From an uncultured SAR86 cluster bacterium (GTDB taxonomy: Bacteria; Pseudomonadota; Gammaproteobacteria; Magnimaribacterales; D2472): DNA of 64,000 bases. The DNA is taken from NCBI GenBank assembly GCA_902593675.1, contig CACJJI010000004.1, positions 6,170 through 70,169 on the forward strand, written 5' to 3'. Numbering within the stretch: the stretch's first letter is position 1; each line of letters begins with the position of its first letter. The notes under the pieces are model-generated. The model saw nothing but the letters and a program-made list of their open reading frames with translations, was not told the origin of the DNA and searched no databases. The translations under genes and the position numbers were made by a program. Positions 6,575 through 51,861 of the stretch are shown here, one piece after another.

Positions 6575-6598
6575 TAACTATTAAGATTTATAAAAGTC

Positions 6599-8113: not shown

Positions 8114-8179
8114 AAACCATACTCCTGATAAAAATTACTGATAAGATATTTATTGTAATGCATCAAGATCGCTAAAGGC

Positions 8180-9307
8180 ATGTATAAAAAGAATATTCTT
8201 GCAATTCATTTAAATTCTCAAATTTTTAAAGGCTTTTTTGCAATACTATTTATCCTGACAGCATTAATTTTTTCATCAAGACTTGTCGGTTATTTTGAGC
8301 AAGCTGCAGCAGGTAGTTTGAATCCAGACATTATTTTTACGGTAATTCTTTTTAGATTGCCTGATTTTTTAGCACTGTTGATACCTTTTGCGTTTTTTCT
8401 GAGCCTCTTGCTTGTTATCTCAGAGCTCTATAATACCAATGGAATCTATGCTTACTTTTCTGCTGGTGTGTCTAGGCTAAGATTGATTAAGCATATCACG
8501 CCATTTTTTTTAGTCGTTTTGGCTGCTTGCTCGATAATAAGTATTTATCTAGCGCCATATGGAAAAGCTCTATCCAAGGACCTTATAGCTGAGCAATCAT
8601 ATGAAGACAAGCTTTCAATGATGCAGCCTAATACCTTGATTAATCTTGATGGGATTGGAAGCTATCTTTATTTTGAATCCTATAATGGCGATCAAATGAC
8701 AGGAGTCACATTTTTTGTTCAAGATGACCCTGCTTTATCAATTATTAAGGCTAAGGAGCTGGAAATTTCTAATGAGGCTGGCAACATGATCTTAAATTTT
8801 AAAAGCGGATCTATATATCCAGACTTAAATAGTCCCAATCAAATAGACGCTTCTTTTAAAGATTTAACCCACTCTATTGACATTGGTTTGGCAACTAGCA
8901 ATCCCCTAACTCTTTCTAAATTACTTGATTATAAAAACAAATCTAATTTTATTCAGAATCAATGGAATGCCAGCATACCAATCATGCTCTTAGCTTTAAT
9001 GTTACTCAGTTTTGTCTTTGGTAAAGAAAACCCTAGATCAGGCAGGGAAGGTAGCCTTGTTACAGGTGTATTAATTTATATATTTTACTTAAGTGTTTTA
9101 GTAGCATTCAGAGAAAGCTATGCAGGTAGCTCAAACTTTTTTTATCACTTCTTATGGCCTGTGCATTTAGCGTTTTTATTTTTTGGAGCTTTGCTCTTTT
9201 GGCTTGATGGAAGAATCGCATTTAAAAACATCTTCTCTAACTCAAGATTAAAAACAGTTTCAATTATCTTTTTAATATTCTTTCTTTTAGTTTGGTTGAG
9301 CTCTTGA
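8180..9307 (+). CDS. lptF: LPS export ABC transporter permease LptF
   Basis: A polytopic YjgP/YjgQ-type permease with a periplasmic beta-jellyroll insert. Its position next to pepA is conserved. Confidence 0.8.
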   Translation: MYKKNILAIHLNSQIFKGFFAILFILTALIFSSRLVGYFEQAAAGSLNPDIIFTVILFRLPDFLALLIPFAFFLSLLLVISELYNTNGIYAYFSAGVSRLRLIKHITPFFLVVLAACSIISIYLAPYGKALSKDLIAEQSYEDKLSMMQPNTLINLDGIGSYLYFESYNGDQMTGVTFFVQDDPALSIIKAKELEISNEAGNMILNFKSGSIYPDLNSPNQIDASFKDLTHSIDIGLATSNPLTLSKLLDYKNKSNFIQNQWNASIPIMLLALMLLSFVFGKENPRSGREGSLVTGVLIYIFYLSVLVAFRESYAGSSNFFYHFLWPVHLAFLFFGALLFWLDGRIAFKNIFSNSRLKTVSIIFLIFFLLVWLSS

Positions 9308-10302
9308 TTAAAGATATTTTTAATACCTATTCTATACACCTTATCAAAAGAAGTTTTCTTATTTCAGCCTTTGTGTGGATGGTAATGTTATTCCTTGATT
9401 TCTCAGTGACTTTAGTCATGGAGCTTGAGAATCTATCAATAAATCAAACTCTTTCGGTGATATTCAATACTGTTCTTTATGAACAATTGCATAAAGGGAT
9501 GCAGTACCTTGAGAGCTCAATGCTTATCGGCACATTGATCGCACTTTCGATATTTAATCAACAGGGTAATTTAGTCTTTTTGCGATCAGCAGGGTTTTCG
9601 CCATTAAAAATCGTATTAGTATTAGGATTGGGTCCAATTATATTGTCATTGGCATTAATCTTTCTTGATGAAACGCTATTTTTAGATCTGTCAAAAAAGT
9701 CTAATACTCTTAGTCAACCCATTCAATCTGCTGAAGCGACCCAATGGGAGATGGCAGGCAGAAATTTAATTGGCTTAAGTCGCTTAAATGATAAGCAGGT
9801 TCAGGCAATTCAAGTCATAGAATTTAATGATCAGCAAAGAGTGGCCTCATTTGCTAATTATGAAGAAGGTAGATTAGAGAATGGCCAATTATTTATTGAA
9901 GATACAGCCACTCAACAGGCTTTAAAATTTCCTGCATCATTTCTGTTAACAAATAATGCATTAGAAAATTTTTCTTTTTTATCATTGTTGGATATTGAAA
10001 AAACCTATCTGCTTGATAAAGATATACAAAAAATTGATACATTAATATATGCAAGGGCACTCTTGCCAGTTTCAATTCTTGCAATAATCTTTTTAGCAGG
10101 CAGCCTCATGTTTAATAGCGCGCGTTCAGGAGGAGTCGGCAGACAAATAATAATAGGTATTTCGCTCGGGCTTATTTATGACTTAATGAAAGATTTGAGC
10201 ATTGCATCATTTCTTACTTATCAATGGCCAATATTAATTGCGCACCTTTTACCAATCATGGTTTTAGTTGGAATCGGAGCCTATAAGTTTCAGAGAATCT
10301 AG
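9292..10302 (+). CDS. lptG: LPS export ABC transporter permease LptG
   Basis: Paralogous permease directly after lptF. The start is uncertain: TTG 9292, or TTG 9304, which overlaps the lptF stop as cTTGAt. Confidence 0.78.
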   Translation: MVELLIKDIFNTYSIHLIKRSFLISAFVWMVMLFLDFSVTLVMELENLSINQTLSVIFNTVLYEQLHKGMQYLESSMLIGTLIALSIFNQQGNLVFLRSAGFSPLKIVLVLGLGPIILSLALIFLDETLFLDLSKKSNTLSQPIQSAEATQWEMAGRNLIGLSRLNDKQVQAIQVIEFNDQQRVASFANYEEGRLENGQLFIEDTATQQALKFPASFLLTNNALENFSFLSLLDIEKTYLLDKDIQKIDTLIYARALLPVSILAIIFLAGSLMFNSARSGGVGRQIIIGISLGLIYDLMKDLSIASFLTYQWPILIAHLLPIMVLVGIGAYKFQRI

Positions 10303-10716
10303 TTAAATTTTTTCTAATTTAGTTTTTGAAAGAATATCATTTACTGCAAGTTTTTTTGAATCTGCATAAATTAGAAATAACGGCATACCAAGCAGTGCAA
10401 GAATTCCACAGTTTACTAAATATCTCAGAAAGGTTTGTTTTAGCGTGATTTGGTCATGATTCTGATCTGTATTAACAATTTTATATTTCCAAACTTGCAT
10501 TCCAAGCGTTTGTCCATTCTTCATCCAAAAAAATGCATAAAAAGCCCATCCACTCAGAAATACCAATAAACTTCCAAGCACTGGATTCAGTATTTCTCCA
10601 CCATTCAACCATAGGGCTAATGAACCTACTAGAAACCAAACTCCAAGCAGCAAAAAGAAGTCATAGACTGAAGCTATGATTCGTAGAAAGGGTCCAACGT
10701 AAGGTGTTTTTTCCAT
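10303..10716 (-). CDS. RDD family membrane protein
   Basis: Small three-TM protein with an R...D..D pattern (PFLRIIASVYDFFLL). I prefer the internal Met at 10716, because the longest ORF (to 10767) would overlap the divergent POT start. Confidence 0.55.
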   Translation of the reverse strand: MEKTPYVGPFLRIIASVYDFFLLLGVWFLVGSLALWLNGGEILNPVLGSLLVFLSGWAFYAFFWMKNGQTLGMQVWKYKIVNTDQNHDQITLKQTFLRYLVNCGILALLGMPLFLIYADSKKLAVNDILSKTKLEKI

Positions 10717-10757
10717 TAGTTTGATATAGTATCTCCATAAATCATAACTCAAATAAT

Positions 10758-12224
10758 ATGAATACAAGTAATACTTTTTTTGGGCATCCTATTGGATTAA
10801 GAACACTATTTTTGACTGAAATGTGGGAGCGCATGTCTTATTATGGAATGCGGGCTTTATTGGTTTTATACATGACAGGTGCAGTTACTGGCTTTAATCC
10901 TGGCCTAGGCTGGTCGCAAATTGAGTCCCAAGCAATTTATGGTATTTACTCTGGGATGGTCTATTTTATGGTTGTTCCAGGAGGGTGGATTGCAGATAAC
11001 ATATTAGGGCATCAAAAAGCTGTATTAATAGGAGCTCTCATTATTGCCTTGGGTCATTTTACTTTAGCCATTCCTATTGAGCAGACATTTTTCTTGGGTT
11101 TGATTTTTGTTGTATTAGGCACCGGTCTTCTTAAGGGAAATATTTCCACCATTGTTGGTCAGTTATATGAGGGTCAAGATGATAAGAGAGATTCTGGCTA
11201 CACCATTTTTTATATGTCTATCAATATAGGCTCAACACTTGGATTTTTGATTTGCTCATATTTAGGTGAAAAAATTGGATGGCATTGGGGATTTGGTGCT
11301 GCCGGGATAGGGATGACTTTTGGTGTCATTCAATATATCAAACACAGACATCTATTGGGGGATGCTGGTATGCATCCTAATGAAATGTCAGATGATAAGC
11401 GCAAAAAGCTTACTAATTATTTAAAAGTATCGCTTGTGGGAATGTTTATGGTCATCGGAGCGGGCCTCCTTGGTTTCTTTACTATTGATCCAAGATTCTT
11501 TGCTGAGCAATTTGCATATTTTCTTACAATTATTGCTGGCTTGTATTTTATTTATTTGTTTCTTTTTGCAGGACTAAATGCTGCTGAAAGAAAAAATTTA
11601 ATACTCTTATTTCTACTCTTTATAGGGGCTGCTGCTTTTTGGTCAGGTTTTGATCAATCAGCAGGCTCATTAAATATTTTTGCAAGAGACTATACAGATT
11701 TATCTATCGCAGGATATGAGATTCCAGTTGGATGGCTGCAGTTTGCAAATCCTGTAATTGTTGTTTTATTTGCCCCAATCTTTGCTGGGATTTGGGCACA
11801 ATTAGCTAGAAAAAATTTAGATCCATCATTGCCAATTAAATTTGCAATTGGACTTTTATTTATGGCATTGAGCTTTCTTGTAATGATTGTTGCTGTAAAA
11901 ATCGCTCTTGAATCATCTCCTGTAGGCATGCAATGGCTGTTACTAACATACTTGTTTCAAACTTGGGGTGAATTAGCCTTATCACCAATTGGTTTATCAG
12001 CATTTTCTCGTTATGGCCCTAAGCGTTACATGGGTCAGATGTTTGGTTTATGGTTTTTAGCAAGCGCAATTGGAGGAGTTCTTGCAGGATTGCTTGGAGG
12101 AGAGGCCTTGGATGGCGGGCTTGAGACTATATCACCAGTTTTTGAATTTATGATTCAGTATTATCTGGTCATTGCTGTTGCATTAATTGCGCTATCTTTT
12201 GTTATTAAAACAGCAAAAGATTAA
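10758..12224 (+). CDS. Proton-dependent oligopeptide transporter (POT/PTR2 family, DtpT-like)
   Basis: The N-terminus FGHPIGLRTLFLTEMWERMSYYGMRALLVLY matches the PTR2 signature region. The protein has about 14 hydrophobic segments. Confidence 0.88.
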   Translation: MNTSNTFFGHPIGLRTLFLTEMWERMSYYGMRALLVLYMTGAVTGFNPGLGWSQIESQAIYGIYSGMVYFMVVPGGWIADNILGHQKAVLIGALIIALGHFTLAIPIEQTFFLGLIFVVLGTGLLKGNISTIVGQLYEGQDDKRDSGYTIFYMSINIGSTLGFLICSYLGEKIGWHWGFGAAGIGMTFGVIQYIKHRHLLGDAGMHPNEMSDDKRKKLTNYLKVSLVGMFMVIGAGLLGFFTIDPRFFAEQFAYFLTIIAGLYFIYLFLFAGLNAAERKNLILLFLLFIGAAAFWSGFDQSAGSLNIFARDYTDLSIAGYEIPVGWLQFANPVIVVLFAPIFAGIWAQLARKNLDPSLPIKFAIGLLFMALSFLVMIVAVKIALESSPVGMQWLLLTYLFQTWGELALSPIGLSAFSRYGPKRYMGQMFGLWFLASAIGGVLAGLLGGEALDGGLETISPVFEFMIQYYLVIAVALIALSFVIKTAKD

Positions 12225-12230
12225 ATGTTT

Positions 12231-13367
12231 TTAGCTTGCTTGATTATTAGTTTCAACAAGAATCTGTTGGTAAATCTCTTGCAGCAATGCCAAGTCTGCT
12301 AAAGAGATTTTTTCATCTATCTTGTGAATGGTTTGATTTCTTGGCCCTAGTTCAATAACTTCTGAGCCAGATGGTGAAACCCATCTCCCATCGGATGTTC
12401 CTCCGCCATTATCGATGATTGCTTCCTTGCCATTTATCATTTTTAAAGCCGTTTGAATAATAGAAAGAAATTCAGTTTTTTTTGTTAAATACGGCTGAGC
12501 ATTTAAAGTCCAATCTATTTCAAAGGAACATTTTGATTTTTCTAAAATTTGAATAAATCTTTCTTTGAGTGATTCCTGACTCGATTCTGGAGAAAACCTA
12601 AAATTAAAGTGCATGTTTAAATGTCCTGGAACAACATTTGTAGCTCCAGTCCCAGAATCAATATTTGAAATTTGAAACGATGTTGAATCGAACTGTTCAT
12701 TGCCTTCATCCCAAATAACTTGGTTGAGTTCATTGATAATAGGTCCTATCTCTAAAATAGGGCTTAAAACTTTTTGGGGGTATGCAACATGACCCTGTTT
12801 ACCAATTAATTTAAGCCTCCCACTTAAAGATCCTCTGCGGCCGACTCTTAAGACATCTCCAACATTATCAGATGAGCTAGCCTCACCAACTAAGCAGTAA
12901 TCAATAAACTGATTTTGCTTGGTAAGAGAGTCCATCAAGGTATTGATTTTTCCATCAGCTGGCTCACCTTCTTCGTTACTAGTTAGCATTATCCATATTT
13001 GAAAATTAGGTATTGGGTTATCAGATAAAAAATTTTTTACTGATTGGACAAAGGCGGCAACACTAGCTTTCATATCTGCTGCCCCTCTACCTATTAACTC
13101 TCCATCAATAACATTTGCCTCAAAAGGATTGGAAGTCCATTCTTCTTCTGGACCAGAGGGCACAACATCAGTATGTCCAAGATAGCAAAACACTTTTCCT
13201 GAATCGCCATATTTTGCTAATAGCGTCTCACAATTCAATTCTGGAATTCTCTCTATTTGAAAGCCTAAGGGGCTTAACTCTGTTTCTATAAGTTCAAAGC
13301 AACCCCCATCTTCTGGAGAGATAGATTTTATTTTTATGAGAGATTGAGCGAGCTCTAGAGCAGACAT
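12231..13367 (-). CDS. dapE: Succinyl-diaminopimelate desuccinylase
   Basis: M20 peptidase features (GHTDVVP, RGAADMK, NEEG). It lies adjacent to dapD. Confidence 0.85.
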   Translation of the reverse strand: MSALELAQSLIKIKSISPEDGGCFELIETELSPLGFQIERIPELNCETLLAKYGDSGKVFCYLGHTDVVPSGPEEEWTSNPFEANVIDGELIGRGAADMKASVAAFVQSVKNFLSDNPIPNFQIWIMLTSNEEGEPADGKINTLMDSLTKQNQFIDYCLVGEASSSDNVGDVLRVGRRGSLSGRLKLIGKQGHVAYPQKVLSPILEIGPIINELNQVIWDEGNEQFDSTSFQISNIDSGTGATNVVPGHLNMHFNFRFSPESSQESLKERFIQILEKSKCSFEIDWTLNAQPYLTKKTEFLSIIQTALKMINGKEAIIDNGGGTSDGRWVSPSGSEVIELGPRNQTIHKIDEKISLADLALLQEIYQQILVETNNQAS

Positions 13368-13372
13368 ATATT

Positions 13373-14380
13373 TTAGTTTTTATGAAGGGTTTGGTTTAAT
13401 GCTACTGATTTAGAGTTAATTCTTGCTTCAATAGCTCCACTTTGAGAGTTTCTAATAAATAATAAATTATCCTGTCCTGCAAGCTCTGATGCCTTAACAA
13501 TAGACCCACTTTCATTATCAGAATTATAAGCTGTAATTTTTGATCCGCCTGTCAAATAGAGGCCTGCTTCAACAATACAATTGTCACCTATTGGAATTCC
13601 TAATCCAGAATTTGCACCTAGGAGACAATTTTCACCTATGGATATCTTTACATTGTTACCTCCTGAGAGAGTTCCCATTGTGCTGCAGCCACCTCCCAAA
13701 TCTGAGTTTTTGCCAACCACAACTCCAGCTGAGATTCTTCCTTCTATCATTGCTGAACCAAGTGTTCCTGCATTGAAATTTACAAAACCCTCATGCATAA
13801 CGGTTGTTCCTTCACTTAGGTATGCCCCAAGCCTGACTCTGCTTGCATCTGCGATACGAACTCCTGGAGGAATAATATAGTCTGTTAAGCATGGAAATTT
13901 GTCGATCGATTTAATTTTAAGCGCCTGATTATTTGCTTTTGCAGACAGAATTTTTTCTTCAATTTCATCTAGTTCCACTGGTCCCTGGTTAGTCCAGGCA
14001 ACATTTAAGAGAGAGTCAAAAAGGTTATCAAGGTTTAATGAATTAGGTAAAAAATGCTTATATGAAATTAGATGTAGTTTTAAATATGCCTCTTCAATAC
14101 ATTCAATGGGATGGTTATCTAAGATTCTGCATAAGACTAAAGTTTTATTTTTATCAAGATCACCCATGGCTATTTTTAAATTTTCATCTGGCAGATTGAG
14201 CTGAGCAACGCCCTTTATTTCAGTCACATCTTGATTCATTAAGGCATCCCACTTCTCATACATGAGGCTGATTTCATCTTTACCATTTTTAAAGCTAATA
14301 CAGGGATAATAGGCATCCAATGTATTACCTGAGTTGCCTTTAGTAGCAATGCCAAGGCCAATTAATGGGAGGTTGTTCAT
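13373..14380 (-). CDS. dapD: Tetrahydrodipicolinate N-succinyltransferase (long, Pseudomonas-type form)
   Basis: C-terminal left-handed beta-helix hexapeptide repeats (GENCLLGANSGLGIPIGDNCIVEAG). It sits in the map-glnD-dapD synteny block. Confidence 0.85.
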   Translation of the reverse strand: MNNLPLIGLGIATKGNSGNTLDAYYPCISFKNGKDEISLMYEKWDALMNQDVTEIKGVAQLNLPDENLKIAMGDLDKNKTLVLCRILDNHPIECIEEAYLKLHLISYKHFLPNSLNLDNLFDSLLNVAWTNQGPVELDEIEEKILSAKANNQALKIKSIDKFPCLTDYIIPPGVRIADASRVRLGAYLSEGTTVMHEGFVNFNAGTLGSAMIEGRISAGVVVGKNSDLGGGCSTMGTLSGGNNVKISIGENCLLGANSGLGIPIGDNCIVEAGLYLTGGSKITAYNSDNESGSIVKASELAGQDNLLFIRNSQSGAIEARINSKSVALNQTLHKN

Positions 14381-27571: not shown

Positions 27572-27658
27572 TGGTGCCGAAAGCGGGACTTGAACCCGCA
27601 CGAGCTTTCGCTCACTAACCCCTCAAGCTAGCGTGTCTACCAATTCCACCACTTCGGC
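27572..27658 (-). tRNA. leuU: tRNA-Leu (anticodon GAG), class II with long variable arm
   Basis: The reverse complement reads GCCGAAGTGGTGGAATTGGTAGACACGCTAGCTTGAGGGGTTAGTGAGCGAAAGCTCGTGCGGGTTCAAGTCCCGCTTTCGGCACCA. This gives an anticodon loop TTGAGGG and an encoded CCA, and is close to E. coli leuU. Confidence 0.9.
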
Positions 27659-27668
27659 AAAGTGGAGA

Positions 27669-27677
27669 ATTATACCA
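27669..27677 (-). promoter_or_regulatory. Candidate extended -10 promoter (TGgTATAAT) for tRNA-Leu
   Basis: The minus strand reads TGGTATAAT, ending about 10 nt upstream of the tRNA-Leu 5' end. No good -35 element is present. Confidence 0.4.
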
Positions 27678-27714
27678 AGTTAAATTTTAATTACTTAAAT
27701 AAATTTGAATTGAC

Positions 27715-27742
27715 TTGACCTCAAGTGCTTGCTTTCTATACA
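27715..27742 (+). promoter_or_regulatory. Candidate sigma70 promoter of the tRNA-fMet-rimP-nusA-infB operon
   Basis: TTGACC (27715-27720), a 16-nt spacer and TATACA (27737-27742) end about 17 nt before the tRNA. The -35 lies within a pentamer run, TTGAA-TTGAC-TTGAC (27705-27719). Confidence 0.4.
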
Positions 27743-27758
27743 CTCTATTTCTCTGCGA

Positions 27759-27835
<77 letters not shown>

Positions 27836-36546: not shown

Positions 36547-36623
36547 TGGTGGCTATGGGTGGAATTGAACCACCGACCCCAGCGTTATGAGTGCTGTGCT
36601 CTAACCATCTGAGCTACATAGCC
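36547..36623 (-). tRNA. Elongator tRNA-Met (anticodon CAT)
   Basis: The reverse complement is GGCTATGTAGCTCAGATGGTTAGAGCACAGCACTCATAACGCTGGGGTCGGTGGTTCAATTCCACCCATAGCCACCA. It closely resembles E. coli metT and not ileX. tRNA-Ile2 cannot be fully excluded from sequence alone. Confidence 0.85.
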
Positions 36624-40039: not shown

Positions 40040-40114
40040 TGGCTGGGGTGGTTGGATTCGAACCAACGCATGACGGGATCAAAACCCGTTGCCTTACCGC
40101 TTGGCTACACCCCA
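40040..40114 (-). tRNA. tRNA-Gln (anticodon TTG)
   Basis: The reverse complement is TGGGGTGTAGCCAAGCGGTAAGGCAACGGGTTTTGATCCCGTCATGCGTTGGTTCGAATCCAACCACCCCAGCCA. It is close to E. coli glnU/V-type tRNA. Confidence 0.9.
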
Positions 40115-44527: not shown

Positions 44528-44631
44528 TATTATTTTCATATGATAAGATTTATTCTTGAGTATGAATGCAGGCTATAATTCTGCTGAAAAAAACCATAAA
44601 GATTACTACTAAATAATAAGGGGTTATTTCA

Positions 44632-46248
44632 ATGAAAGGTAATATGATGAAATGGGATTTAACTATCCCTCAGGCAATTTTACATGCCGAAAAATATAAT
44701 TTTGATGGCAAATTAGTTTCTCGAGAATTAGATGGCTCAATAAATTCAACTACATATGGAGAGTCAATTAAACGATCTAAAAAGCTGGCTAATGCCCTTG
44801 CAAAACTTGGTGTAAATAGACATGATCGAGTCGCAACTATTGCATGGAATAACAGCAGGCATTTTGAAACATATTTTGCTGTATCTGGAATGGGGGCCAT
44901 TCTTCATACCTTAAATCCAAGATACTCTCCTGATCAATTAATTTACATACTTAATCATGCAGAGGACGAGGTTTTAATTGTTGATCCTTCATTCATTCCG
45001 CTTGTGGAAAGCGTTCAAGATAAGTTAAATACTGTGAAAACAATAATTATTGCCTCATCAAAAGACTCTATTCCAGACAATAGCCTAAAAAATGCGCTAA
45101 GTTATGATGAGTTAATTGAGGGTGAATCTGATGAATTTGATTGGCCTGAATTAAATGAAGATGATGCAGTTGCTTTGTGTTATACCTCTGGTACTACTGG
45201 GAATCCTAAGGGAGTCTTGTATTCTCATAGGTCAACAATTTTGCATTCAATTTCAGTATCTGGAGCTATGGGTTTCGAATCATCTAGTTCAGTCTTGCCA
45301 GTTGTTCCTATGTTTCATGTTAATGCATGGGGCGTGCCTTATTGTGCATTGATTACTGGATTAACTTTGGTATTGCCTTGCCATGCTTTAGATGGAGAGT
45401 CCTTATATGAGCTAGTAGAACAAGAATCAGTTGACTCCATGTTGGGTGTTCCAACTGTGTGGCTTGGGTTATTGCAGTATCTTGAAGGAAAAGACCTTAA
45501 GCTTGATACGGTTGATCAAGTTTTGGTTGGAGGTTCTGCAGCGCCATATGCAATGATTAAGGCATTTGATGAACAACATGATGCATTTTTAACTCATGGT
45601 TGGGGAATGACAGAAATGAGTCCTCTTGGAACGATAAATGCTCCAACTAAGAAAACCCTAAGCCTTCCTAAGGAAGAAAGATATCAGCTTCAAACCAAAC
45701 AGGGTTATCCGATGTTTGGTGTAGAGATTAAGACCGTTGATGATGAAAATAATGAGCTGCCTAGAGATGGAGAAGCTAATGGTGCTTTAAAAGTTAAAGG
45801 CCCGTGGATCATGCATACATACTATAAAGCAGATGGTCCTGCGGTAGATAAAGAGGGTTGGTTTGATACAGGAGATGTTGCAACTATCCATCCAGATGGA
45901 TGCATGCAGATTGTCGATAGGGCAAAAGACGTTATTAAGACAGGCGGTGAATGGATAAGCTCTATAGATTTAGAAAATGCTGTTTTGACTCATGAGAATG
46001 TGCTTGAAGCATGTGTAGTAGGGGTCCCACATCCAAAGTGGGATGAAAGACCCTTGCTTTTTTTAATTACCAAAGATGGCAATGAAATAGATAAACAAGA
46101 AATAAATGATTTCCTATTAGAAAAGGTTGTTAAGTGGTGGCTACCAGATGATATTATATTTGTTAGCGAACTCCCTCATGGGGCAACTGGAAAATTATTA
46201 AAAGTTGAACTTAGAGAACAATACAAAGAGCATTTAATGGAGAAATAA
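44632..46248 (+). CDS. Medium/long-chain fatty-acid--CoA ligase (AMP-binding family)
   Basis: Carries [18 protein letters not shown] and a C-terminal GKLLK. An AAGGGG SD lies 7 nt upstream. Confidence 0.85.
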
Positions 46249-46249
46249 A

Positions 46250-46708
46250 ATGGCAATAACAATAGTGAAACCTGAGGATTTAAAAGATTATATTGGAAAG
46301 GATCTAGGAACCACTGAATGGTTTAAAGTTGATCAAGATAGAATTAATAAATTTGCTGATGCTACTGAAGATCATCAATTTATTCATGTTGACTCAGAAA
46401 AAGCTACTCCTATTTTCGGCTCAACAATTGCACATGGTTTTTTATCGCTTTCACTAGTTGCTGGTCTCGGTAAAGACACGGCACTTGTTGTTGAAGGTGC
46501 AAAAATGGGCTTAAATTATGGGCTAGACAAAGTTCGTTTTTTAAGTCCCGTGGCAGTTGATTCAAAAGTAAGGCTTCATACCTCAATTGTCGACATTACA
46601 GAAAAAAATCCTGGACAATATTTAGTGAAAGCTTCTGTAACTATGGAGATAGAAGGGGTTGAGAAACCAGCTTTTATTGCAGAAACATTGTCAATGTGGG
46701 TTATTTAA
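46250..46708 (+). CDS. MaoC-like (R)-specific enoyl-CoA hydratase/dehydratase (hot-dog fold)
   Basis: 152 aa with FADATEDHQFIHVD...TIAHGF. It starts 1 nt after the ligase stop. Confidence 0.8.
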   Translation: MAITIVKPEDLKDYIGKDLGTTEWFKVDQDRINKFADATEDHQFIHVDSEKATPIFGSTIAHGFLSLSLVAGLGKDTALVVEGAKMGLNYGLDKVRFLSPVAVDSKVRLHTSIVDITEKNPGQYLVKASVTMEIEGVEKPAFIAETLSMWVI

Positions 46709-47949
46709 ACTTCTTTTAAGATATCAAATTTATCAAAATAAAATTTAAAAGATTTATAGAATTCTGATTTATCTACATTAAAATCTTCTAAGTTATATAT
46801 AACTTGCCCGTGTTTACCCCTTTTGTTTGCATTTATATATTCTTTAATTTCATTATTTGCAATTTTATCAATCTCAAAAGAATTTTTTGAATAGATGCTC
46901 TTAACGCTATTAAGATTATCTTTTATAAGGTCATGAAAATAGACATCACTTTTTTGATTCGTAGGAATTAATTCATAATTTTCTGTAAAACTCATTAGAA
47001 GTTTTTTAATGCGATCATGCCAATAATTAAAATTATGTATTGGCTCGACTTTATATCTTCTAATCCTATCTCCATATGAGAGCATTGTTGCTGTTGATAA
47101 TACTACTGATAATGGATCCCTGTAAGTGATTGCAAAAGTTGCATCTGGAAATGTTGCAAGCAACGGAGTTATTTGCTCAAGATGCTGCGGTGATTTTAGT
47201 ATCCACTTTTTAGGCCCTTGAATGAATTGCATAGCCTTTAAGACATCTTTTAAGTATTGATAATGATTAATTTGATTATGTGAGAGGTAGTAATCCCTCC
47301 ATTCAGGAACATAAGCTAACCACTCAGGAAGATAAGTTGAAAAATCCATAGCCTGAAGTTCAATCTCTTCATGAATATGATTTGGATGCATATCATGCAT
47401 CGATTTCAGCAAAGGCATAGTTTGAAGGAAGCTCTCATATTCTTTAAATGCTTCTTCTTGTCTAGAGTCTTTTTTGTTGTCTAAATTTAGTATTTTTTCT
47501 TGAAATGGCCTCAGACTTTCCCAATATGGTAGAGATTTTAATCTTGAATCAGATGCTATAAGGTTTAAAAGATGCGTGGTGCCAGACCTTGGTAGACCAA
47601 TAATAATTATAGGTTTAGAGATAATTTCATCTTGATACTCAGGAAACTTTTTCTTAAATTTTTGAAATTTTAGTCTATTCTCTAAATATCTAACTTGATC
47701 ATTAAAAATACCAAGCTTTCCTATCCCTGCTAATCCCTCATCATTTGAAACCGACCGCATCAAAACATCTAATCTTAAAATAAAATCTTCATCTCCAAAA
47801 TCTTGAAGTCCTGAATTTTTGCATGCCTCATTGATGATAGCTTCAGCATGCAAATCTATTTTTAGCGTTTCACCATAATCTTTTGCAGCCTTTTGAAATT
47901 CACTAAGTATTGGATTTGTTAAATCATCAATTTTAATTTTTTTTGACAT
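46705..47949 (-). CDS. PAPS-dependent sulfotransferase family protein
   Basis: Has a 5'-PSB loop (GLPRSGTTHL) and a 3'-PB-like motif (YRDPLSVVLS). The 414-aa protein has about 105 aa of N-terminal region before the PSB loop. Confidence 0.75.
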   Translation of the reverse strand: MSKKIKIDDLTNPILSEFQKAAKDYGETLKIDLHAEAIINEACKNSGLQDFGDEDFILRLDVLMRSVSNDEGLAGIGKLGIFNDQVRYLENRLKFQKFKKKFPEYQDEIISKPIIIIGLPRSGTTHLLNLIASDSRLKSLPYWESLRPFQEKILNLDNKKDSRQEEAFKEYESFLQTMPLLKSMHDMHPNHIHEEIELQAMDFSTYLPEWLAYVPEWRDYYLSHNQINHYQYLKDVLKAMQFIQGPKKWILKSPQHLEQITPLLATFPDATFAITYRDPLSVVLSTATMLSYGDRIRRYKVEPIHNFNYWHDRIKKLLMSFTENYELIPTNQKSDVYFHDLIKDNLNSVKSIYSKNSFEIDKIANNEIKEYINANKRGKHGQVIYNLEDFNVDKSEFYKSFKFYFDKFDILKEV

Positions 47950-47951
47950 TT

Positions 47952-48701
47952 TCAGCTAGAAATTGAATAGCCTCCATCGACCCTTAGAGTTTCACCAGTG
48001 ATGTATCTCGCTGAATGAGATGTTAGAAATAATACAGCATTAGCTATATCAGCAGGATCCCCAAATTTTTTTAATGCAATTCTATTTAATATATCTTTTG
48101 AAAATTCTTCTGAATTGATGATGGGCTCAGTCATTCTAGTTTTTATATATCCGGCAGCTACAGCATTAACCCGAATTGATTGATCAGCCCATTTCATTGA
48201 TAAAGTCTTGATAAGCTGAACCAAACCACCTTTACCAGCTCCATAACCTGGAACAATTGGCATTCCAAAAAAAGATGTCATTGAAGCTATACCAATAATA
48301 GATGCGCCTCCTTGAAGATTGGATTGCATTAAAATAGGTTGAAGTAAATTAGATAATCTATAAAAGCTGTTTAGGTGAATATAGACGGCTCTATCAAAGA
48401 TATCAGGATCATCCTCACTTTTTCCGTCTGGAAAACTGAGACCACCATTATTAATAAGAATGTCTAATTTTTTTATAGATTTTTTAATTTCATCAATATT
48501 ATTTTTATCTTCTAGGTTTAATTTAATATAAGAAAATTCTTTTGGGATATCTTTATAGTCTTCTATGGAGGTTTTTGTTCCAGTAATTGTTACATTGGCG
48601 CCTGACGCTAAATAAGCCTCCGCAATAGCCTTACCAATACCACTTGTTCCGCCAGTGACAAGAATATCTGTATTAGAATAATCAAAAGAGATGTTGCTCA
48701 T
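47952..48701 (-). CDS. SDR family oxidoreductase
   Basis: Carries TGGTSGIGKA, NNGG and YGAGKGG. It lies 2 nt downstream of the sulfotransferase in the transcription order SDR then ST. The start is either 48701 or 48719. Confidence 0.8.
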   Translation of the reverse strand: MSNISFDYSNTDILVTGGTSGIGKAIAEAYLASGANVTITGTKTSIEDYKDIPKEFSYIKLNLEDKNNIDEIKKSIKKLDILINNGGLSFPDGKSEDDPDIFDRAVYIHLNSFYRLSNLLQPILMQSNLQGGASIIGIASMTSFFGMPIVPGYGAGKGGLVQLIKTLSMKWADQSIRVNAVAAGYIKTRMTEPIINSEEFSKDILNRIALKKFGDPADIANAVLFLTSHSARYITGETLRVDGGYSISS

Positions 48702-48725
48702 GAATAAATATAATAACATGTGAAT

Positions 48726-50000
48726 ATGGGATCTTTACTTATCAATAAAAGGCCTGGATCTTTAGATATAAAGCCAGCAAGCCAGTCAAAACCTTTTCAA
48801 ATAAATGATTTTATTTTTTTATCTGAAGGGGCTAGTAATAGCTATTTGATAGAAACATCTGAAGGAAATATTTTAATAAATACTGGACTAGGTGTAGAAG
48901 CTCCAATTCACAAACATTGTTTTGATCAAGTCAATAATAAAGAAATTAAATACATTATTTATACTCAAGGTCATGTGGATCATGTTGGAGGATCAGGTTT
49001 TTTTAAAGAATATAATCCTGATGCGACCCTAATTGCACAAAAAAATATTATCGAACATCAATCTTTTGATTCATTAACTCAAGGTGGAAGGGTATTAAAT
49101 GCATATAAATTTTTCGGAGAAATGATCGATCTGATGAATGATGCCATAGCCAAAGCAGAGAAAATGGGATTTAAAGATATTCAATCAATTGCTGAGCCAG
49201 ATGTCTTGTTTGATGATGAATATAGAATATCTTTAGGGGGGCTTGATTTAGAACTGTATTCCGTTCCTGGCGGAGAAACTTTGGATGCTCTCTTAGTCTA
49301 TCTACCACAACATAAAATTCTTTTTTCTGGAAATGCCTTTGGGCCTTTGTTTCCTCATATTCCAAATTTTTGTACTATCCGTGGGGATAGAATTAGGTTT
49401 GCAATTCCCTATCTAGATATGTGTAAAAAGGTTTTAGAGCTAAATCCTGAAGTATTAATTACAGGTCACTTTAAACCTATTGAGGGACAGAAATTAATCA
49501 ACAAAGAAGTAAAAAATCTTCATGATGCAGTTGAATACATTCACACCAAAACAGTAGATGGAATTAATTCTGGAAAAGATATGTTTAACTTAATGCAAGA
49601 GGTAGTTTTGCCAAGAGAATTATCAGTTGGAGAGGGGTATGGGACTGTTGAATGGGCTGTTCGTTCTATTTATGAGGGATATACAGGTTGGTTTAGACAT
49701 AATTCAACGACAGAATTATATGCTTACTCTCCAACAAATATTTTTCCTGATTTAAATGATTTAATTGATAAAGAAATCGCATTAAAAAGAATAAAAGTAC
49801 TTATTGATCAAAAAGAATATTTAAAAGCTATTAATATTTCTGAAATTATTATTTCTTCAGACGACAATAAAGAAGCATTAAAAATGTACTTAAATATTCA
49901 TCAAATTCTGCTTGAAGAAGCTCAAAAAAATTCAAATCGCTGGATAATTAAATGGCTAGAGTTTGAAATAGAAGAAACTAAAAATAAATTAAATGAATAA
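48726..50000 (+). CDS. Metallo-beta-lactamase-fold, alkyl-sulfatase-like protein (MBL plus dimerisation domain, no SCP2 domain, no signal peptide)
   Basis: The motif YTQGHVDHVGG corresponds to YTHSHxDHxGG of SdsA1/Pisa1-type sulfatases. YEGYTGWFRHNSTTELY and the helical C-terminus resemble the alkyl-sulfatase dimerisation domain. The start is ATG 48726 or GTG 48720. Confidence 0.6.
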   Translation: MGSLLINKRPGSLDIKPASQSKPFQINDFIFLSEGASNSYLIETSEGNILINTGLGVEAPIHKHCFDQVNNKEIKYIIYTQGHVDHVGGSGFFKEYNPDATLIAQKNIIEHQSFDSLTQGGRVLNAYKFFGEMIDLMNDAIAKAEKMGFKDIQSIAEPDVLFDDEYRISLGGLDLELYSVPGGETLDALLVYLPQHKILFSGNAFGPLFPHIPNFCTIRGDRIRFAIPYLDMCKKVLELNPEVLITGHFKPIEGQKLINKEVKNLHDAVEYIHTKTVDGINSGKDMFNLMQEVVLPRELSVGEGYGTVEWAVRSIYEGYTGWFRHNSTTELYAYSPTNIFPDLNDLIDKEIALKRIKVLIDQKEYLKAINISEIIISSDDNKEALKMYLNIHQILLEEAQKNSNRWIIKWLEFEIEETKNKLNE

Positions 50001-51018
50001 GAAAACCCATCAAATTAATATTCAAGGCCCCAATATCTTATCCCTTGATTTGGTTAATTATCCTAATATGGGAGCAAATGACTTAATTGTTGCTATTAAG
50101 TACTGTGGAATATGTGGAACTGATTTAAGTTATTTATCTTCGGGTGGATTAATGGGTCCTCAAAAGGAGCCAATGCCACTTGGTCATGAAATGTCAGGAG
50201 TAGTTATTGAAATTGGATCCAATATCAAAAATATTAATATTGATGATAGGGTGGCCATTAATCCTATGGGAAATAATAACAGCATCGGAAATGGTGGGCT
50301 AGAAGGAGGGATGACAAATTTTTTACTAGTAAAGAATGCCGTTTTAAATGAAAGTATTTTTAAATTACCAGAAGATATGTCATTTGAAATAGGCGCATTG
50401 GTAGAACCCTTTGCAGTTGCCTTAAGAACAATTCATCGTTCAAATTTAGATCCAAATTCAAAAATTGCGGTTTGCGGATTAGGATGCATTGGATTTGCAG
50501 TGGTTACATTGTTAAATTATTTTGGATACAAAAATATAGTTGCAGTAGATCTTCATAATCTAAGAGTTTCAAATGCAAATGATTTAGATTTTGTAAAAGC
50601 ATATACGGATTGGGATAGCTTCACCAATGCATTAAAAGAATTTCATGGCCAAGGGCAAGTATTCGGTATCCCTACTTCAAAAACAGATGTTTTTATTGAT
50701 TGCACAGGGAGTCATAAATTAATTAGTGACATAATTAATATTTCAAAAACACACACAAGAATAGTTGTTGCAGGATTGCATCAAGAGGAGGCATCTATTG
50801 ATTTCAGATCAGTCTTAATGCGTGAGCTTGCCATAACATGTTCTATGGCATATTCAAATATAGAATTTTCTGAATCATTGGAAATTTTATCAAAAGGCAT
50901 TATTGATCAAAGAAAATTTGTAAGCCATAAATGCAAGATTCAAGATCATAAAAAGGCATTTGAGCTGGCACAAGATGGCAATTTAGCATCAAAAGTTTTA
51001 ATTGACTTATGCAATTAG
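49993..51018 (+). CDS. Zinc-dependent medium-chain alcohol dehydrogenase
   Basis: Carries CGICGTDL, GHEMSGVV and the GLGCIG dinucleotide fold. It overlaps the upstream stop (ATGAATAA). Confidence 0.8.
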   Translation: MNKKTHQINIQGPNILSLDLVNYPNMGANDLIVAIKYCGICGTDLSYLSSGGLMGPQKEPMPLGHEMSGVVIEIGSNIKNINIDDRVAINPMGNNNSIGNGGLEGGMTNFLLVKNAVLNESIFKLPEDMSFEIGALVEPFAVALRTIHRSNLDPNSKIAVCGLGCIGFAVVTLLNYFGYKNIVAVDLHNLRVSNANDLDFVKAYTDWDSFTNALKEFHGQGQVFGIPTSKTDVFIDCTGSHKLISDIINISKTHTRIVVAGLHQEEASIDFRSVLMRELAITCSMAYSNIEFSESLEILSKGIIDQRKFVSHKCKIQDHKKAFELAQDGNLASKVLIDLCN

Positions 51019-51860
51019 CATTTTCTAGGTTCGGATATTTAATTTGTATAGTCTCTATTCTAAGCGCATCAATTTTTTTGATTGAATTTGGATACAGTGA
51101 ATTAGAAGTATTATTTTTTGCTGCTATTGGTTCAATTATTTTTACAATTGTAGGAGAGTTTTTTATACCTTTATTTAAAGATTGGAGACCAAATTTTAAA
51201 GAAAATTTTTTTCCTGATGCGTCTCTTTTTGTTGTGAATTATGTTTTATTTCAAAGTCAATTATTACAAATTTTTCTTGCTTCTATTGCTATTAAATTTT
51301 CTGGAGGAGGATTTGATTTATGGCCATCAGAATTAAATATATATTTTCAATTAGTTGTTGCTTTAATCATTTCTGAATTTGGACTTTACTGGTTTCATAG
51401 AGCTTGTCATGAGATTCCTTTTTTATGGCGATTTCATAAGATTCATCATAACCCCCAAAGACTGTATTGGTTTAATGCAACGAGATTCCATTACCTTGAT
51501 GTGACATTGCTTCAGGTTTGTGGAATTGTTCCTTTATTACTTTTAGGCGCAGAAGCAAAAATTATTGCTCTGGTAACGATTTTCAGTACTGTTCACGGAT
51601 TTTGGCAGCATATTAACGCAAAGCAAGATCAAAGAATTCTTAATTATTTTTTCTCTGGTCCAGAACTTCATAGGTGGCATCATAATCTGAAACCAGAAAT
51701 AGCAAATCACAATTATGGAAATAATCTTATTATTTGGGATCATGTATTTAAAACTTTTTATTGGCCAAAAGATAATAACGAACAGCTTAAAAATATTGGT
51801 GTTGAAGGAAATTTCTCAAACAATATTAAATCTATGATTTTTGATCCTTTTAAAGGATAG
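51009..51860 (+). CDS. Fatty acid hydroxylase / sterol desaturase superfamily membrane protein
   Basis: Carries three His boxes (HRACH, HKIHH, HRWHH) and several TM segments. It overlaps the end of the ADH gene by 10 nt. Confidence 0.75.
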   Translation: MQLAFSRFGYLICIVSILSASIFLIEFGYSELEVLFFAAIGSIIFTIVGEFFIPLFKDWRPNFKENFFPDASLFVVNYVLFQSQLLQIFLASIAIKFSGGGFDLWPSELNIYFQLVVALIISEFGLYWFHRACHEIPFLWRFHKIHHNPQRLYWFNATRFHYLDVTLLQVCGIVPLLLLGAEAKIIALVTIFSTVHGFWQHINAKQDQRILNYFFSGPELHRWHHNLKPEIANHNYGNNLIIWDHVFKTFYWPKDNNEQLKNIGVEGNFSNNIKSMIFDPFKG

Positions 51861-51861
51861 A

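Follow-up and report, generated by a model that had tools for sequence, protein, structure and literature searches.

The present work concerns a group of seven genes at positions 44632-51860 of a 64,000-nucleotide stretch of DNA (contig CACJJI010000004.1 of assembly GCA_902593675.1; the whole stretch is referred to as the window) from an uncultured bacterium of the SAR86 cluster. This group includes a gene for a sulfotransferase of the type that uses 3'-phosphoadenosine 5'-phosphosulfate (PAPS) and a gene for a metallo-beta-lactamase (MBL)-fold protein resembling alkyl sulfatases, and the association between these two genes is the main subject of this report. An earlier sequence-only reading of this DNA had described seven open reading frames (ORFs) at this locus, and all of them were recovered at exactly the same coordinates and on the same strands. 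The domains predicted for them (viz. AMP-binding, MaoC_dehydratas, Sulfotransfer_3, adh_short, Lactamase_B with Alkyl_sulf_dimr, ADH_N/ADH_zinc_N and FA_hydroxylase) were likewise all found above the curated Pfam cut-offs. The genes, and the smaller unit that five of them form, are as follows:

44632-46248, plus strand: acyl-CoA ligase (Pfam AMP-binding and AMP-binding_C); part of a neighbouring SAR86 module, outside the cassette
46250-46708, plus strand: protein with the MaoC-type (R)-specific enoyl-CoA hydratase fold (Pfam MaoC_dehydratas), paired with the ligase; outside the cassette
46705-47949, minus strand: Stf-like PAPS-type sulfotransferase (Sulfotransfer_3, PF13469, E = 8e-32); core cassette gene
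47952-48719, minus strand: classical short-chain dehydrogenase/reductase (SDR; Pfam adh_short_C2 / adh_short); cassette gene
48720-50000, plus strand: short MBL-fold protein of the type III alkyl-sulfatase lineage (Pfam Lactamase_B and Alkyl_sulf_dimr); core cassette gene
49993-51018, plus strand: zinc-dependent medium-chain alcohol dehydrogenase (Zn-ADH; Pfam ADH_N and ADH_zinc_N); variable cassette member
51009-51860, plus strand: integral-membrane di-iron hydroxylase (FA_hydroxylase, PF04116, E = 6e-29; OlsE-like); variable cassette member
46709-51861, no strand: presence/absence (indel) cassette as a whole, bounded by the stop codons of MaoC and gatB

The packing of these genes is as tight as had been described, with gaps of 1 nt between the ligase and MaoC genes and of 2 nt between the SDR and sulfotransferase genes, and with overlapping stops and starts in the MBL, Zn-ADH and hydroxylase genes (8 nt for MBL/Zn-ADH and 10 nt for Zn-ADH/hydroxylase). 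Further, the stop codons of the MaoC and sulfotransferase genes overlap, and that of the hydroxylase gene is 1 nt away from the stop codon of gatB. The block is flanked by prfA-prmC upstream and by gatB-gatA downstream.

A five-gene cassette in SAR86

The proposal that all seven genes form one block is not borne out by contigs in which the site is empty. These contigs show that the co-inherited unit consists of five genes, viz. those for the sulfotransferase, SDR, MBL protein, Zn-ADH and FA_hydroxylase, and that these five (the cassette) are present or absent as a clean unit. All seven genes are found in the same place and order in SAR86 relatives whose sulfotransferases are 75% and 62% identical to that of the window. 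Relatives lacking the cassette were found by scanning metagenome contigs with GatB as the anchor. In one of these (L090), whose ligase, MaoC, GatB and PrmC proteins are 95%, 93%, 86% and 80% identical, respectively, to those of the window, the gene order is mreB, then gatA-gatB, then MaoC-ligase-prmC-prfA-hemA, and all five cassette genes are missing. Only about 6 nt lie between the stop codons of MaoC and gatB at this empty site, and the cassette of the window fills that gap exactly. The same arrangement, with MaoC abutting gatB, is seen in more distant SAR86-like contigs (L091-L094; GatB identity 68-70%). The cassette, being absent as a block from L090-L094, is accessory within SAR86, as the sequence-only reading had supposed. 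Where the cassette is present, its identities parallel those of the flanking core genes (73% for MBL and 70% for GatB in L004; 85% for both in L001), which indicates that it has been vertically inherited across a deep divergence within SAR86, with clean loss in some lineages. The MBL protein is also 96% identical to proteins of the SAR86 single-cell assemblies AG-457-D18 and AG-447-P08, which places the window in SAR86.

The region from the sulfotransferase to the hydroxylase had earlier been described as visibly AT-rich, based on G+C counts of 9 and 29 in two 60-nt lines of the sequence. These counts are exact and the AT-richness is real, but it is modest and was overstated, as these genes contain 31.2% GC compared with 35.3% for the window. 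The cassette genes individually lie 0.5-1.5 standard deviations below the gene mean GC, 7.5% of sliding windows of equal length are at least as AT-rich, and the GC of housekeeping genes such as mreC/D is even lower. The ligase and MaoC pair, with 37.3% GC, is unlike the cassette in this regard. The reported lack of mobile elements holds, as there is no integrase or transposase ORF, no adjacent tRNA gene, and the repeats at the boundaries are only low-identity chance ones. A recent horizontal transfer of the cassette into SAR86 was considered and found to be unsupported, since the deviation in GC is mild and unaccompanied by repeats, tRNA or mobile genes, and the cassette identities parallel those of the core genes.

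Outside SAR86, the full five-gene set was found only in Myxococcota-type contigs (L006, L032, L042 and L043), and the closest non-SAR86 relatives of the sulfotransferase (49-51% identity) are also labelled as Myxococcota. This suggests that the whole cassette was transferred long ago between the SAR86 and Myxococcota lineages, in one direction or the other. In one SAR86 contig from Fram Strait (L001, 6937-7957), the cassette Zn-ADH is called as two ORFs (158 and 179 aa). L002 and L003, two nearly identical contigs, have an intact gene (339 aa), and the split in L001 is a frameshift or an assembly error.

The sulfotransferase/MBL pair and its linkage across phyla

The sulfotransferase scores 111.7 bits against PF13469 (cut-off 27), and by its motifs and this score it is a member of the Sulfotransfer_3 / Stf group. 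The motifs GLPRSGTTHL (residues 118-127), R277-D-P...S285, W-E-S, HEExE and K-x-P-Q-H are invariant in 11 diverse members of its family. The first of these is the 5'-phosphosulfate loop and RDP...S is the 3'-phosphate site, and with both PAPS-binding motifs in place the enzyme looks catalytically competent. Its only sequence matches in the PDB are the mycobacterial proteins Stf1 (2zq5) and Stf9 (2z6v), both of which were deposited as uncharacterised proteins. It shares with the mycobacterial Stf proteins the Sulfotransfer_3 domain, a length of about 400 aa and an extension at the N-terminus; however, its similarity to Stf1 is only about 83 bits, and the acceptors of Stf1 and Stf9 are not known.

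The MBL protein matches both Lactamase_B (66.6 bits) and Alkyl_sulf_dimr (35.1 bits) above the Pfam cut-offs. It is 426 aa long as called, and translation probably starts at the ATG at 48726, given the length of 424 aa in its relatives. Its best relatives of known structure are the type III alkyl sulfatases. In a sequence search of the PDB, Pisa1 is matched with E = 9e-18 (6e-27 using a profile of the family), and SdsA1, SdsAP and E. coli YjcS are matched as well. These alignments cover the catalytic and dimerisation domains, beginning after residue 90-133 of the characterised chains and ending at about residue 500-526. In addition, the 13 best Foldseek matches in the PDB to the AlphaFold model of the protein (predicted local distance difference test score, pLDDT, 84) are all type III sulfatases (template modelling score, TM, 0.72-0.79, across the two domains), whereas other MBL folds reach TM values of at most 0.51. 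As in the type III enzymes, an MBL catalytic domain is followed by a helical Alkyl_sulf_dimr domain.

In type III sulfatases, zinc is bound by HxH and DH residues, by a pair of acidic residues and by a distal His (PMC5426288). In the family of the window protein, the residues Q83-x-H85-x-D87-H88, E186, N205, H213, N216, T219, R221, R226 and H250 are invariant, and of the ligands H85, D87, H88, E186 and H250 are retained (i.e. the H-x-D-H motif, the Glu of GGE/GSE and the C-terminal His). The motif N216-x2-T219-x-R221-G-x3-R226 is identical to N318/T321/R323/R328 of Pisa1 and to the corresponding residues of YjcS, and we take these four residues to correspond to the sulfate-binding residues of type III sulfatases. 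The same residue pattern is seen in 88 members of the family, some having a sulfotransferase beside them and some not. The segment Q83-H88 and N205 were part of the peptide patterns by which these members were retrieved, so that their invariance in that set is partly circular; they are also invariant in an independently retrieved set.

The window protein differs from the characterised type III enzymes in several other respects. It is about 425 aa long as compared with 630-670 aa, its N-terminus lacks a hydrophobic leader, and the SCP2-like C-terminal domain, which in those enzymes forms a channel for the alkyl chain, is absent (no Pfam match was found to SCP2, and the protein ends after the dimerisation domain). 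Both the sulfotransferase and the MBL protein appear to be cytoplasmic, in line with the sequence-only reading, which had placed the proteins of the locus in the cytoplasm or inner membrane. Based on its sequence and predicted fold, the MBL protein is a descendant of the type III sulfatases and would work like them. However, it is not filed here as an alkyl sulfatase, because two defining features of that group, viz. the complete binuclear zinc site and the SCP2 domain, are lacking.

Of the remaining cassette proteins, the SDR is generic and FabG-like. It is the third most conserved member of the cassette, and its gene, lying upstream of that for the sulfotransferase, is predicted to be co-transcribed with it. 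The best PDB relatives of the Zn-ADH are sorbitol, (R,R)-butanediol, xylitol and threonine dehydrogenases, i.e. the branch acting on polyols and secondary alcohols, and a role for it in the oxidation of fatty alcohols was rejected on this basis. The hydroxylase is polytopic, and the His boxes HRACH, HKIHH and HRWHH are intact in its translation. It scores 176.8 bits against the NCBIfam OlsE model NF052566 (cut-off 475) and clears only the generic FA_hydroxylase model of Pfam. Due to this score, which is far under the cut-off, and the absence of any nearby gene for ornithine-lipid synthesis, a link of the hydroxylase with ornithine lipids was rejected. The closest hydroxylase homologs outside SAR86, which were seen in three unrelated contexts, have no ornithine-lipid genes near them and do not adjoin an MBL gene. 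The closest of all (L170, 8089-9963; 49% identity) is divergently oriented beside a 223-aa protein with a faint match to Sulfotransfer_2. It is far from the MBL homolog that is presumably on the same contig, and this arrangement hints at a second, independent association of a hydroxylase with a sulfotransferase.

The main evidence that the sulfotransferase and the MBL protein are functionally connected comes from other genomes. Two peptide patterns derived from a 14-member alignment of the MBL family were searched for in collections holding one genome per species, and at least 600 stretches were matched. Among the matches listed, at least 555 were confirmed as MBL relatives, which are about 425 aa long, have the same two domains and carry only generic names in their sources. 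They come from SAR86, Halieaceae, Litorivivens, Endozoicomonas, Rhodocyclaceae, Steroidobacteraceae, Myxococcota, Binatia, Acidimicrobiia, Paracoccaceae and spirochaetes. The regions surrounding 74 non-SAR86 MBL genes were searched with profiles for a sulfotransferase, and 72 of these loci were long enough to be judged. A sulfotransferase-like gene is located within 300 nt of the MBL gene in 42 of them and within 3 kb in 19 more (61/72), and in one it is farther away. The pairwise distances of the MBL proteins and of the sulfotransferases are also correlated (r = 0.71, Mantel p <= 0.0005; 32 loci). Orthologs of the other cassette genes are less frequent in the 74 loci, viz. 38 for the SDR (at least 40% identity), 17 for the Zn-ADH (at least 32%) and 9 for the hydroxylase (at least 36%), with all five occurring together in only 4, the Myxococcota-type contigs named above. 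The check on gene neighbourhoods proposed with the sequence-only reading has shown that the linkage recurs both within and beyond the gammaproteobacteria. As that reading had surmised, the functional pairing of the sulfotransferase with the alkyl-sulfatase-like MBL protein is real: their genes are adjacent or translationally coupled in most loci, in several phyla, and have co-evolved. The pair is present in at least several hundred species of Pseudomonadota, Myxococcota, Actinomycetota (Acidimicrobiia), Binatia and spirochaetes.

The arrangements in which the pair is found are varied. One contig from Myxococcales carries the MBL, sulfotransferase, Zn-ADH and SDR genes on one strand with 4-nt overlaps, followed by a nearby FA_hydroxylase gene, and two more contigs have the orders MBL-sulfotransferase-FA_hydroxylase and TetR, MBL-sulfotransferase-SDR. 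The 4-nt overlap of the MBL and sulfotransferase genes is found beyond Myxococcales as well. In Litorivivens (L019, Gammaproteobacteria; 5198-13950) and Paracoccaceae (L020, Alphaproteobacteria; 4150-11523), an operon is seen that encodes TetR, a cytochrome P450, a thioesterase-fold protein, the MBL protein, the sulfotransferase and a TSP3-repeat/S15-family hydrolase. The MBL proteins of these two loci are 78% identical and the sulfotransferases 77%, from which it follows that the two genes move together, and the sequences indicate that the whole operon has been transferred between the two classes. Halieaceae-like loci contain genes for a 3-hydroxyisobutyrate-dehydrogenase-like protein, an aldehyde dehydrogenase, two SDRs, an alpha/beta-hydrolase, a PNPOx-like protein, the MBL protein, the sulfotransferase and a further SDR, and are flanked by genes for a Rieske oxygenase, a TonB-dependent receptor and an Fe-ADH. 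In Endozoicomonas arenosclerae (L059) the order is TetR, sulfotransferase-MBL-ADH-SDR. In E. numazuensis DSM 25634 (L047, 9233-13825), the cassette Zn-ADH gene is interrupted by genes for an IS605-type TnpB/OrfB protein and a DDE transposase, and the operon of E. arenosclerae is intact.

The ORFs located within 2.6 kb of the pair (about 298) were clustered and searched against Pfam. The commonest family among them is SDR (41 ORFs), followed by Zn-ADH (about 15), Glyoxalase_4 (VOC; 11), TetR (10), GFO/IDH/MocA (7), AMP-binding (5), P450, FAD_binding_2 and SnoaL-like (4 each), FA_hydroxylase (3 or more), PhyH, Rieske and DAO (3 each), and luciferase-like monooxygenase and MaoC (2 each); alpha/beta-hydrolases are also found. 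No recurrent gene for a transporter, exporter, flippase, acyltransferase or lipid assembly was seen among them. The common theme, i.e. an oxygenase, secondary-alcohol oxidoreductases and a regulator, looks like the processing of a hydrophobic or alicyclic substrate. No description of a sulfotransferase/MBL-sulfatase gene pair, or of a link between SAR86 and sulfotransferases, was found in the searchable library, and sulfotransferases are not mentioned in a network survey of the MBL superfamily. No report was found of such genetic coupling for the characterised type III alkyl sulfatases.

Possible reaction of the pair and alternative explanations

The explanation that we favour, tentatively and with somewhat less than even confidence, is that the sulfotransferase and the MBL protein act consecutively on one hydroxyl group, such that the sulfate serves as an activating or leaving group, and not as a lasting modification, and a C-O bond is broken. 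The membrane di-iron hydroxylase would hydroxylate a substrate that is hydrophobic and membrane-soluble. Where other taxa have a P450, Rieske or PhyH oxygenase instead, that enzyme would fill this role, and some substrates may be hydroxylated already. The sulfotransferase would then convert the hydroxyl, within the cell, into a sulfate ester. The MBL protein would bind this ester and cleave its C-O bond, as type III sulfatases do, to give either an inverted alcohol or an elimination product (alkene), and the SDR and the polyol-type Zn-ADH would interconvert a neighbouring or the resulting secondary alcohol and the ketone. That the two enzymes share a substrate, that the substrate is lipidic, that they act in this order and that the C-O rather than the S-O bond is cleaved are all points that we infer.

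Several considerations have led to this proposal. If the MBL protein only undid the sulfation, then the result would be a futile cycle, and for a coupled cytoplasmic pair this favours a reading in which the C-O bond is cleaved and the sulfate is a leaving group. The type III sulfatases, unlike other sulfatases, are known to attack carbon, cleaving the C-O bond with inversion of configuration (PMC3920027, PMC4163651, PMC7785958). The suggestion of the sequence-only reading that a lipid is hydroxylated and then sulfated fits with the observation that a P450, Rieske or PhyH protein takes the place of the FA_hydroxylase in other taxa, and it has a precedent in Cyp128 and Stf3 (PMC6469627). Sulfation carried out solely to create a leaving group is also a feature of several plant pathways. 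Another example of this kind is provided by the sulfotransferase-thioesterase domains of CurM and of the cyanobacterial olefin synthase, where an aliphatic (beta-)hydroxyl is sulfated only to allow the sulfate to be expelled by a second catalyst of the hydrolase type (PMC11730487). However, those are domains of polyketide synthases, in which an alpha/beta-hydrolase thioesterase acts decarboxylatively on a beta-hydroxyacyl chain bound to an acyl carrier protein, whereas the proteins considered here, known from sequence, are free-standing, have an MBL-fold partner and involve no carrier protein.

A broader form of this proposal, which we regard as somewhat unlikely, is that the pair constitutes a free-standing and widespread two-enzyme module, in which an aliphatic hydroxyl is activated by PAPS and its C-O bond is cleaved at a modified metal centre, leading to stereoinversion or dehydration, behind whichever oxygenase the lineage possesses (di-iron, P450, Rieske or PhyH), for lipids, isoprenoids or steroid-like compounds. 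As a part of it, and equally doubtful, the stereoinversion or dehydration would be of alcohols that are beyond the reach of ordinary dehydrogenases and dehydratases.

A number of observations count against the proposed reaction. First, in the MBL family two of the seven metal ligands of type III sulfatases are replaced throughout, the first His of HxHxDH by Gln83, and the Asp of Pisa1 (Glu in YjcS) by Asn205, and the binuclear zinc site is not complete. Secondly, the general acid of Pisa1, which protonates the leaving sulfate, is His317 (PMC4163651), and this position is occupied in the MBL family by an invariant Pro215. An invariant His213 is present two residues upstream and, judging from the alignment, could stand in for it. 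Due to these changes the chemistry of the MBL protein may differ from that of the known sulfatases, or it may not involve the cleavage of sulfate esters at all. Thirdly, no sulfotransferase was found near the MBL gene in 10 of the 72 loci despite there being room for one, and in SAR86 itself the two genes are on opposite strands and do not form one operon. Further, genomic linkage shows that there is a functional connection, and it should not be interpreted as showing the order or the type of the reactions. Ordinary pairs of dehydrogenases can invert alcohols without the cost of PAPS, so that inversion alone is a weak rationale for such a system. Neither the MBL nor the sulfotransferase subfamily includes a characterised member or a known substrate. 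Lastly, the enzymes needed to take up sulfate and to carry out its assimilatory reduction are reportedly missing from all SAR86 assemblies (PMC3358033), and no genes for PAPS synthesis are present in the window or recurrent near the pair in the neighbourhood census. In view of these two facts, the source of the sulfate donor in SAR86 is unexplained.

Two other roles for the partners were set aside. The possibility that the sulfotransferase runs backwards to harvest activated sulfate meets with the difficulty that SAR86 has no reductive pathway to use it. Alkyl sulfates are also poor sulfate donors. The possibility that the MBL protein hydrolyses PAPS, or the 3'-phosphoadenosine 5'-phosphate left from it, in the service of the sulfotransferase is not in accordance with its occurrence together with an SDR where no sulfotransferase is found, or with its retention of the sulfatase-specific motif.

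Among the alternatives, the one that survives best, and which we consider unlikely, is that the end product is a sulfated membrane or envelope lipid. In this case the hydroxylase and the sulfotransferase would build the lipid, the MBL protein would be a true sulfatase that trims or recycles it (a write/erase pair), and the dehydrogenases would tailor it. A direct precedent exists in the M. tuberculosis operon for the sulfomenaquinone S881, where a hydroxylase gene (Cyp128) stands beside that for an Stf-type sulfotransferase (Stf3) acting on a lipid (PMC6469627). The sulfotransferase of the window is closest to mycobacterial Stf1 and Stf9, its FA_hydroxylase is an OlsE-like integral-membrane protein, and although this differs from the P450 of the mycobacterial operon, P450s are found in its place in L019 and L020. 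However, in S881 synthesis the sulfate is part of the final product, and neither a sulfatase nor a sulfatase-like partner is reported for that operon. If a writer and an eraser were translationally coupled, as the pair would then be, the outcome would be a futile cycle that consumes PAPS. Acyltransferase, flippase or exporter genes do not recur with the pair, a hydroxylase is present in only about 9 of the 74 non-SAR86 loci, and the frequent partners (TetR, a TonB-dependent receptor, hydrolases and many dehydrogenases) look catabolic and not biosynthetic.

These same partners bear on a second alternative, viz. the catabolism of imported organic sulfate esters (for example, sterol, alkyl or polyol esters of algal or animal origin), in which the MBL protein would free the alcohol, the SDR and Zn-ADH would oxidise it, and the sulfotransferase would be auxiliary (re-sulfating a second position or serving in detoxification). 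Lipid degradation has been described as a speciality of SAR86 (PMC3358033), the pair adjoins genes for a TonB-dependent receptor and hydrolases in the Halieaceae-like loci, and the MBL protein is of sulfatase lineage and carries the sulfatase motif. The ten loci without a sulfotransferase, which hold the MBL and SDR genes, are also as this explanation would predict. Nevertheless, we judge it to be quite improbable, as it leaves unexplained the presence of the sulfotransferase in about 85% of the loci, where it is mostly translationally coupled to the MBL gene and co-evolving with it. Further, a conserved inner-membrane transporter that could carry an anionic ester is missing, the alkyl-binding SCP2 domain is absent from the MBL protein, the N-terminal segment of the characterised sulfatases is outside the alignment, and oxygenases would be unexpected upstream of a sulfatase step.

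The third alternative is the catabolic chain put forward in the sequence-only reading, which would employ the seven genes in the manner of sodium dodecyl sulfate (SDS) degradation by Pseudomonas: hydrolysis of an alkyl sulfate gives an alcohol, the ADH and SDR oxidise this to an acid, and the acid is activated by the ligase and passed through MaoC to beta-oxidation. In its favour, the seven genes lie close together both in the window and in SAR86 relatives, the ligase clears the cut-off of the PRK06187 acyl-CoA ligase subfamily (569 versus 476 bits), and AMP-binding and MaoC genes are among the neighbours of the pair in a few non-SAR86 loci (5 and 2, respectively, of the ORFs in the census). 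However, the chain is not borne out by the present results and is very improbable. The ligase and MaoC genes are inherited independently, remaining in place when the other five are absent, and their orthologs are not found beside the MBL/sulfotransferase pair in any of the 74 non-SAR86 loci. The Zn-ADH is of the polyol/secondary-alcohol type, the SAR86 block contains no aldehyde dehydrogenase, and the MBL protein is devoid of SCP2 and of any aligned counterpart of the N-terminal 90-130 or so residues of SdsA1 and Pisa1. The scheme also has no place for the sulfotransferase, and a different role for the ligase is suggested by its best-matching model (DmdB) and the SAR86 dmdA gene. The weakest alternative, that these are functionally unconnected neighbours packed together by genome streamlining, accords with the extreme compactness of SAR86 genomes (PMC3358033), the mildly deviant composition and the occurrence of promoter- and terminator-like sites at the frequency of shuffled sequence, but is hardly credible when the MBL/sulfotransferase adjacency, often with SDR, ADH and hydroxylase orthologs, recurs in unrelated genomic surroundings in Myxococcota, Halieaceae, Endozoicomonas, Rhodocyclaceae, Binatia, Acidimicrobiia and others, and the five genes come and go as a single block.

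SAR86 bacteria are among the most abundant uncultured heterotrophs of the surface ocean, are thought to be specialised on lipids and to be without sulfate assimilation, and a conserved cassette of the PAPS type in their streamlined genomes therefore demands an explanation. If the transient activation that we favour is correct, then the use of sulfate as a leaving group would no longer be confined to a few specialised natural-product pathways but would belong to a common and portable metabolic module, and the type III sulfatases would acquire a new reaction type, or at least a variant of the metal site, of interest for stereoselective biocatalysis. Should the broader two-enzyme module also hold, it would represent a new general strategy by which bacteria handle hydrophobic compounds, as well as an unrecognised use of activated sulfate by SAR86. 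If instead the product is a stable sulfated lipid, then an unrecognised class of sulfolipids with a built-in eraser would be present in marine and soil bacteria. Either outcome is testable, as cultured carriers of the pair exist (E. arenosclerae and E. numazuensis), whose TetR regulators can be expected to recognise the substrate.

The ligase-MaoC module and the surroundings of the cassette

The ligase and MaoC genes are a separate SAR86 module, which is more widely kept than the cassette. The best NCBIfam model for the ligase is NF005426 (DmdB, 3-(methylthio)propionyl-CoA ligase), for which its score of 716 bits is under the cut-off of 822. The genomes of SAR86 are reported to carry dmdA (PMC3358033), and the ligase-MaoC pair (44632-46708; L090 11431-13501) might be a methylthiopropionate-CoA module, in which the MaoC hydratase replaces DmdD, or might act on some other acyl-CoA substrate. 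A second presence/absence polymorphism occurs at this side of the locus, where a gene for a GH84 NAGidase is found between prmC and the ligase in SAR86 relatives (L001 13342-14385; L004 13348-15135). More distant SAR86 relatives also have a ThiF-like gene in this position, and in the window there is only a 104-nt spacer (44528-44631).

Within the cassette, the SDR gene (start at 48719, minus strand) and the MBL gene (GTG 48720 or ATG 48726) diverge from starts that are 0-6 nt apart, and the promoters of both must therefore sit within neighbouring coding sequence. Promoter-like and terminator-like matches are no commoner here than in shuffled sequence; the plus-strand site that looks most like a promoter (GTGACA-16-AATAAT, 48655-48682) is located inside the SDR gene. 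The remainder of the window consists of housekeeping genes, viz. valS, pepA, lptFG, dapDE, glnD, carAB, ftsH, glmM, tpiA, nusA, infB, truB, pnp, mreBCD, mgtE and rpoN. Beyond tRNA, no Rfam family reaches its gathering score anywhere in the window. The tRNA genes are four in number (Leu-GAG, two Met-CAT and Gln-TTG; 27572-27835, 36547-36623 and 40040-40114), and all of them are distant from the cassette.

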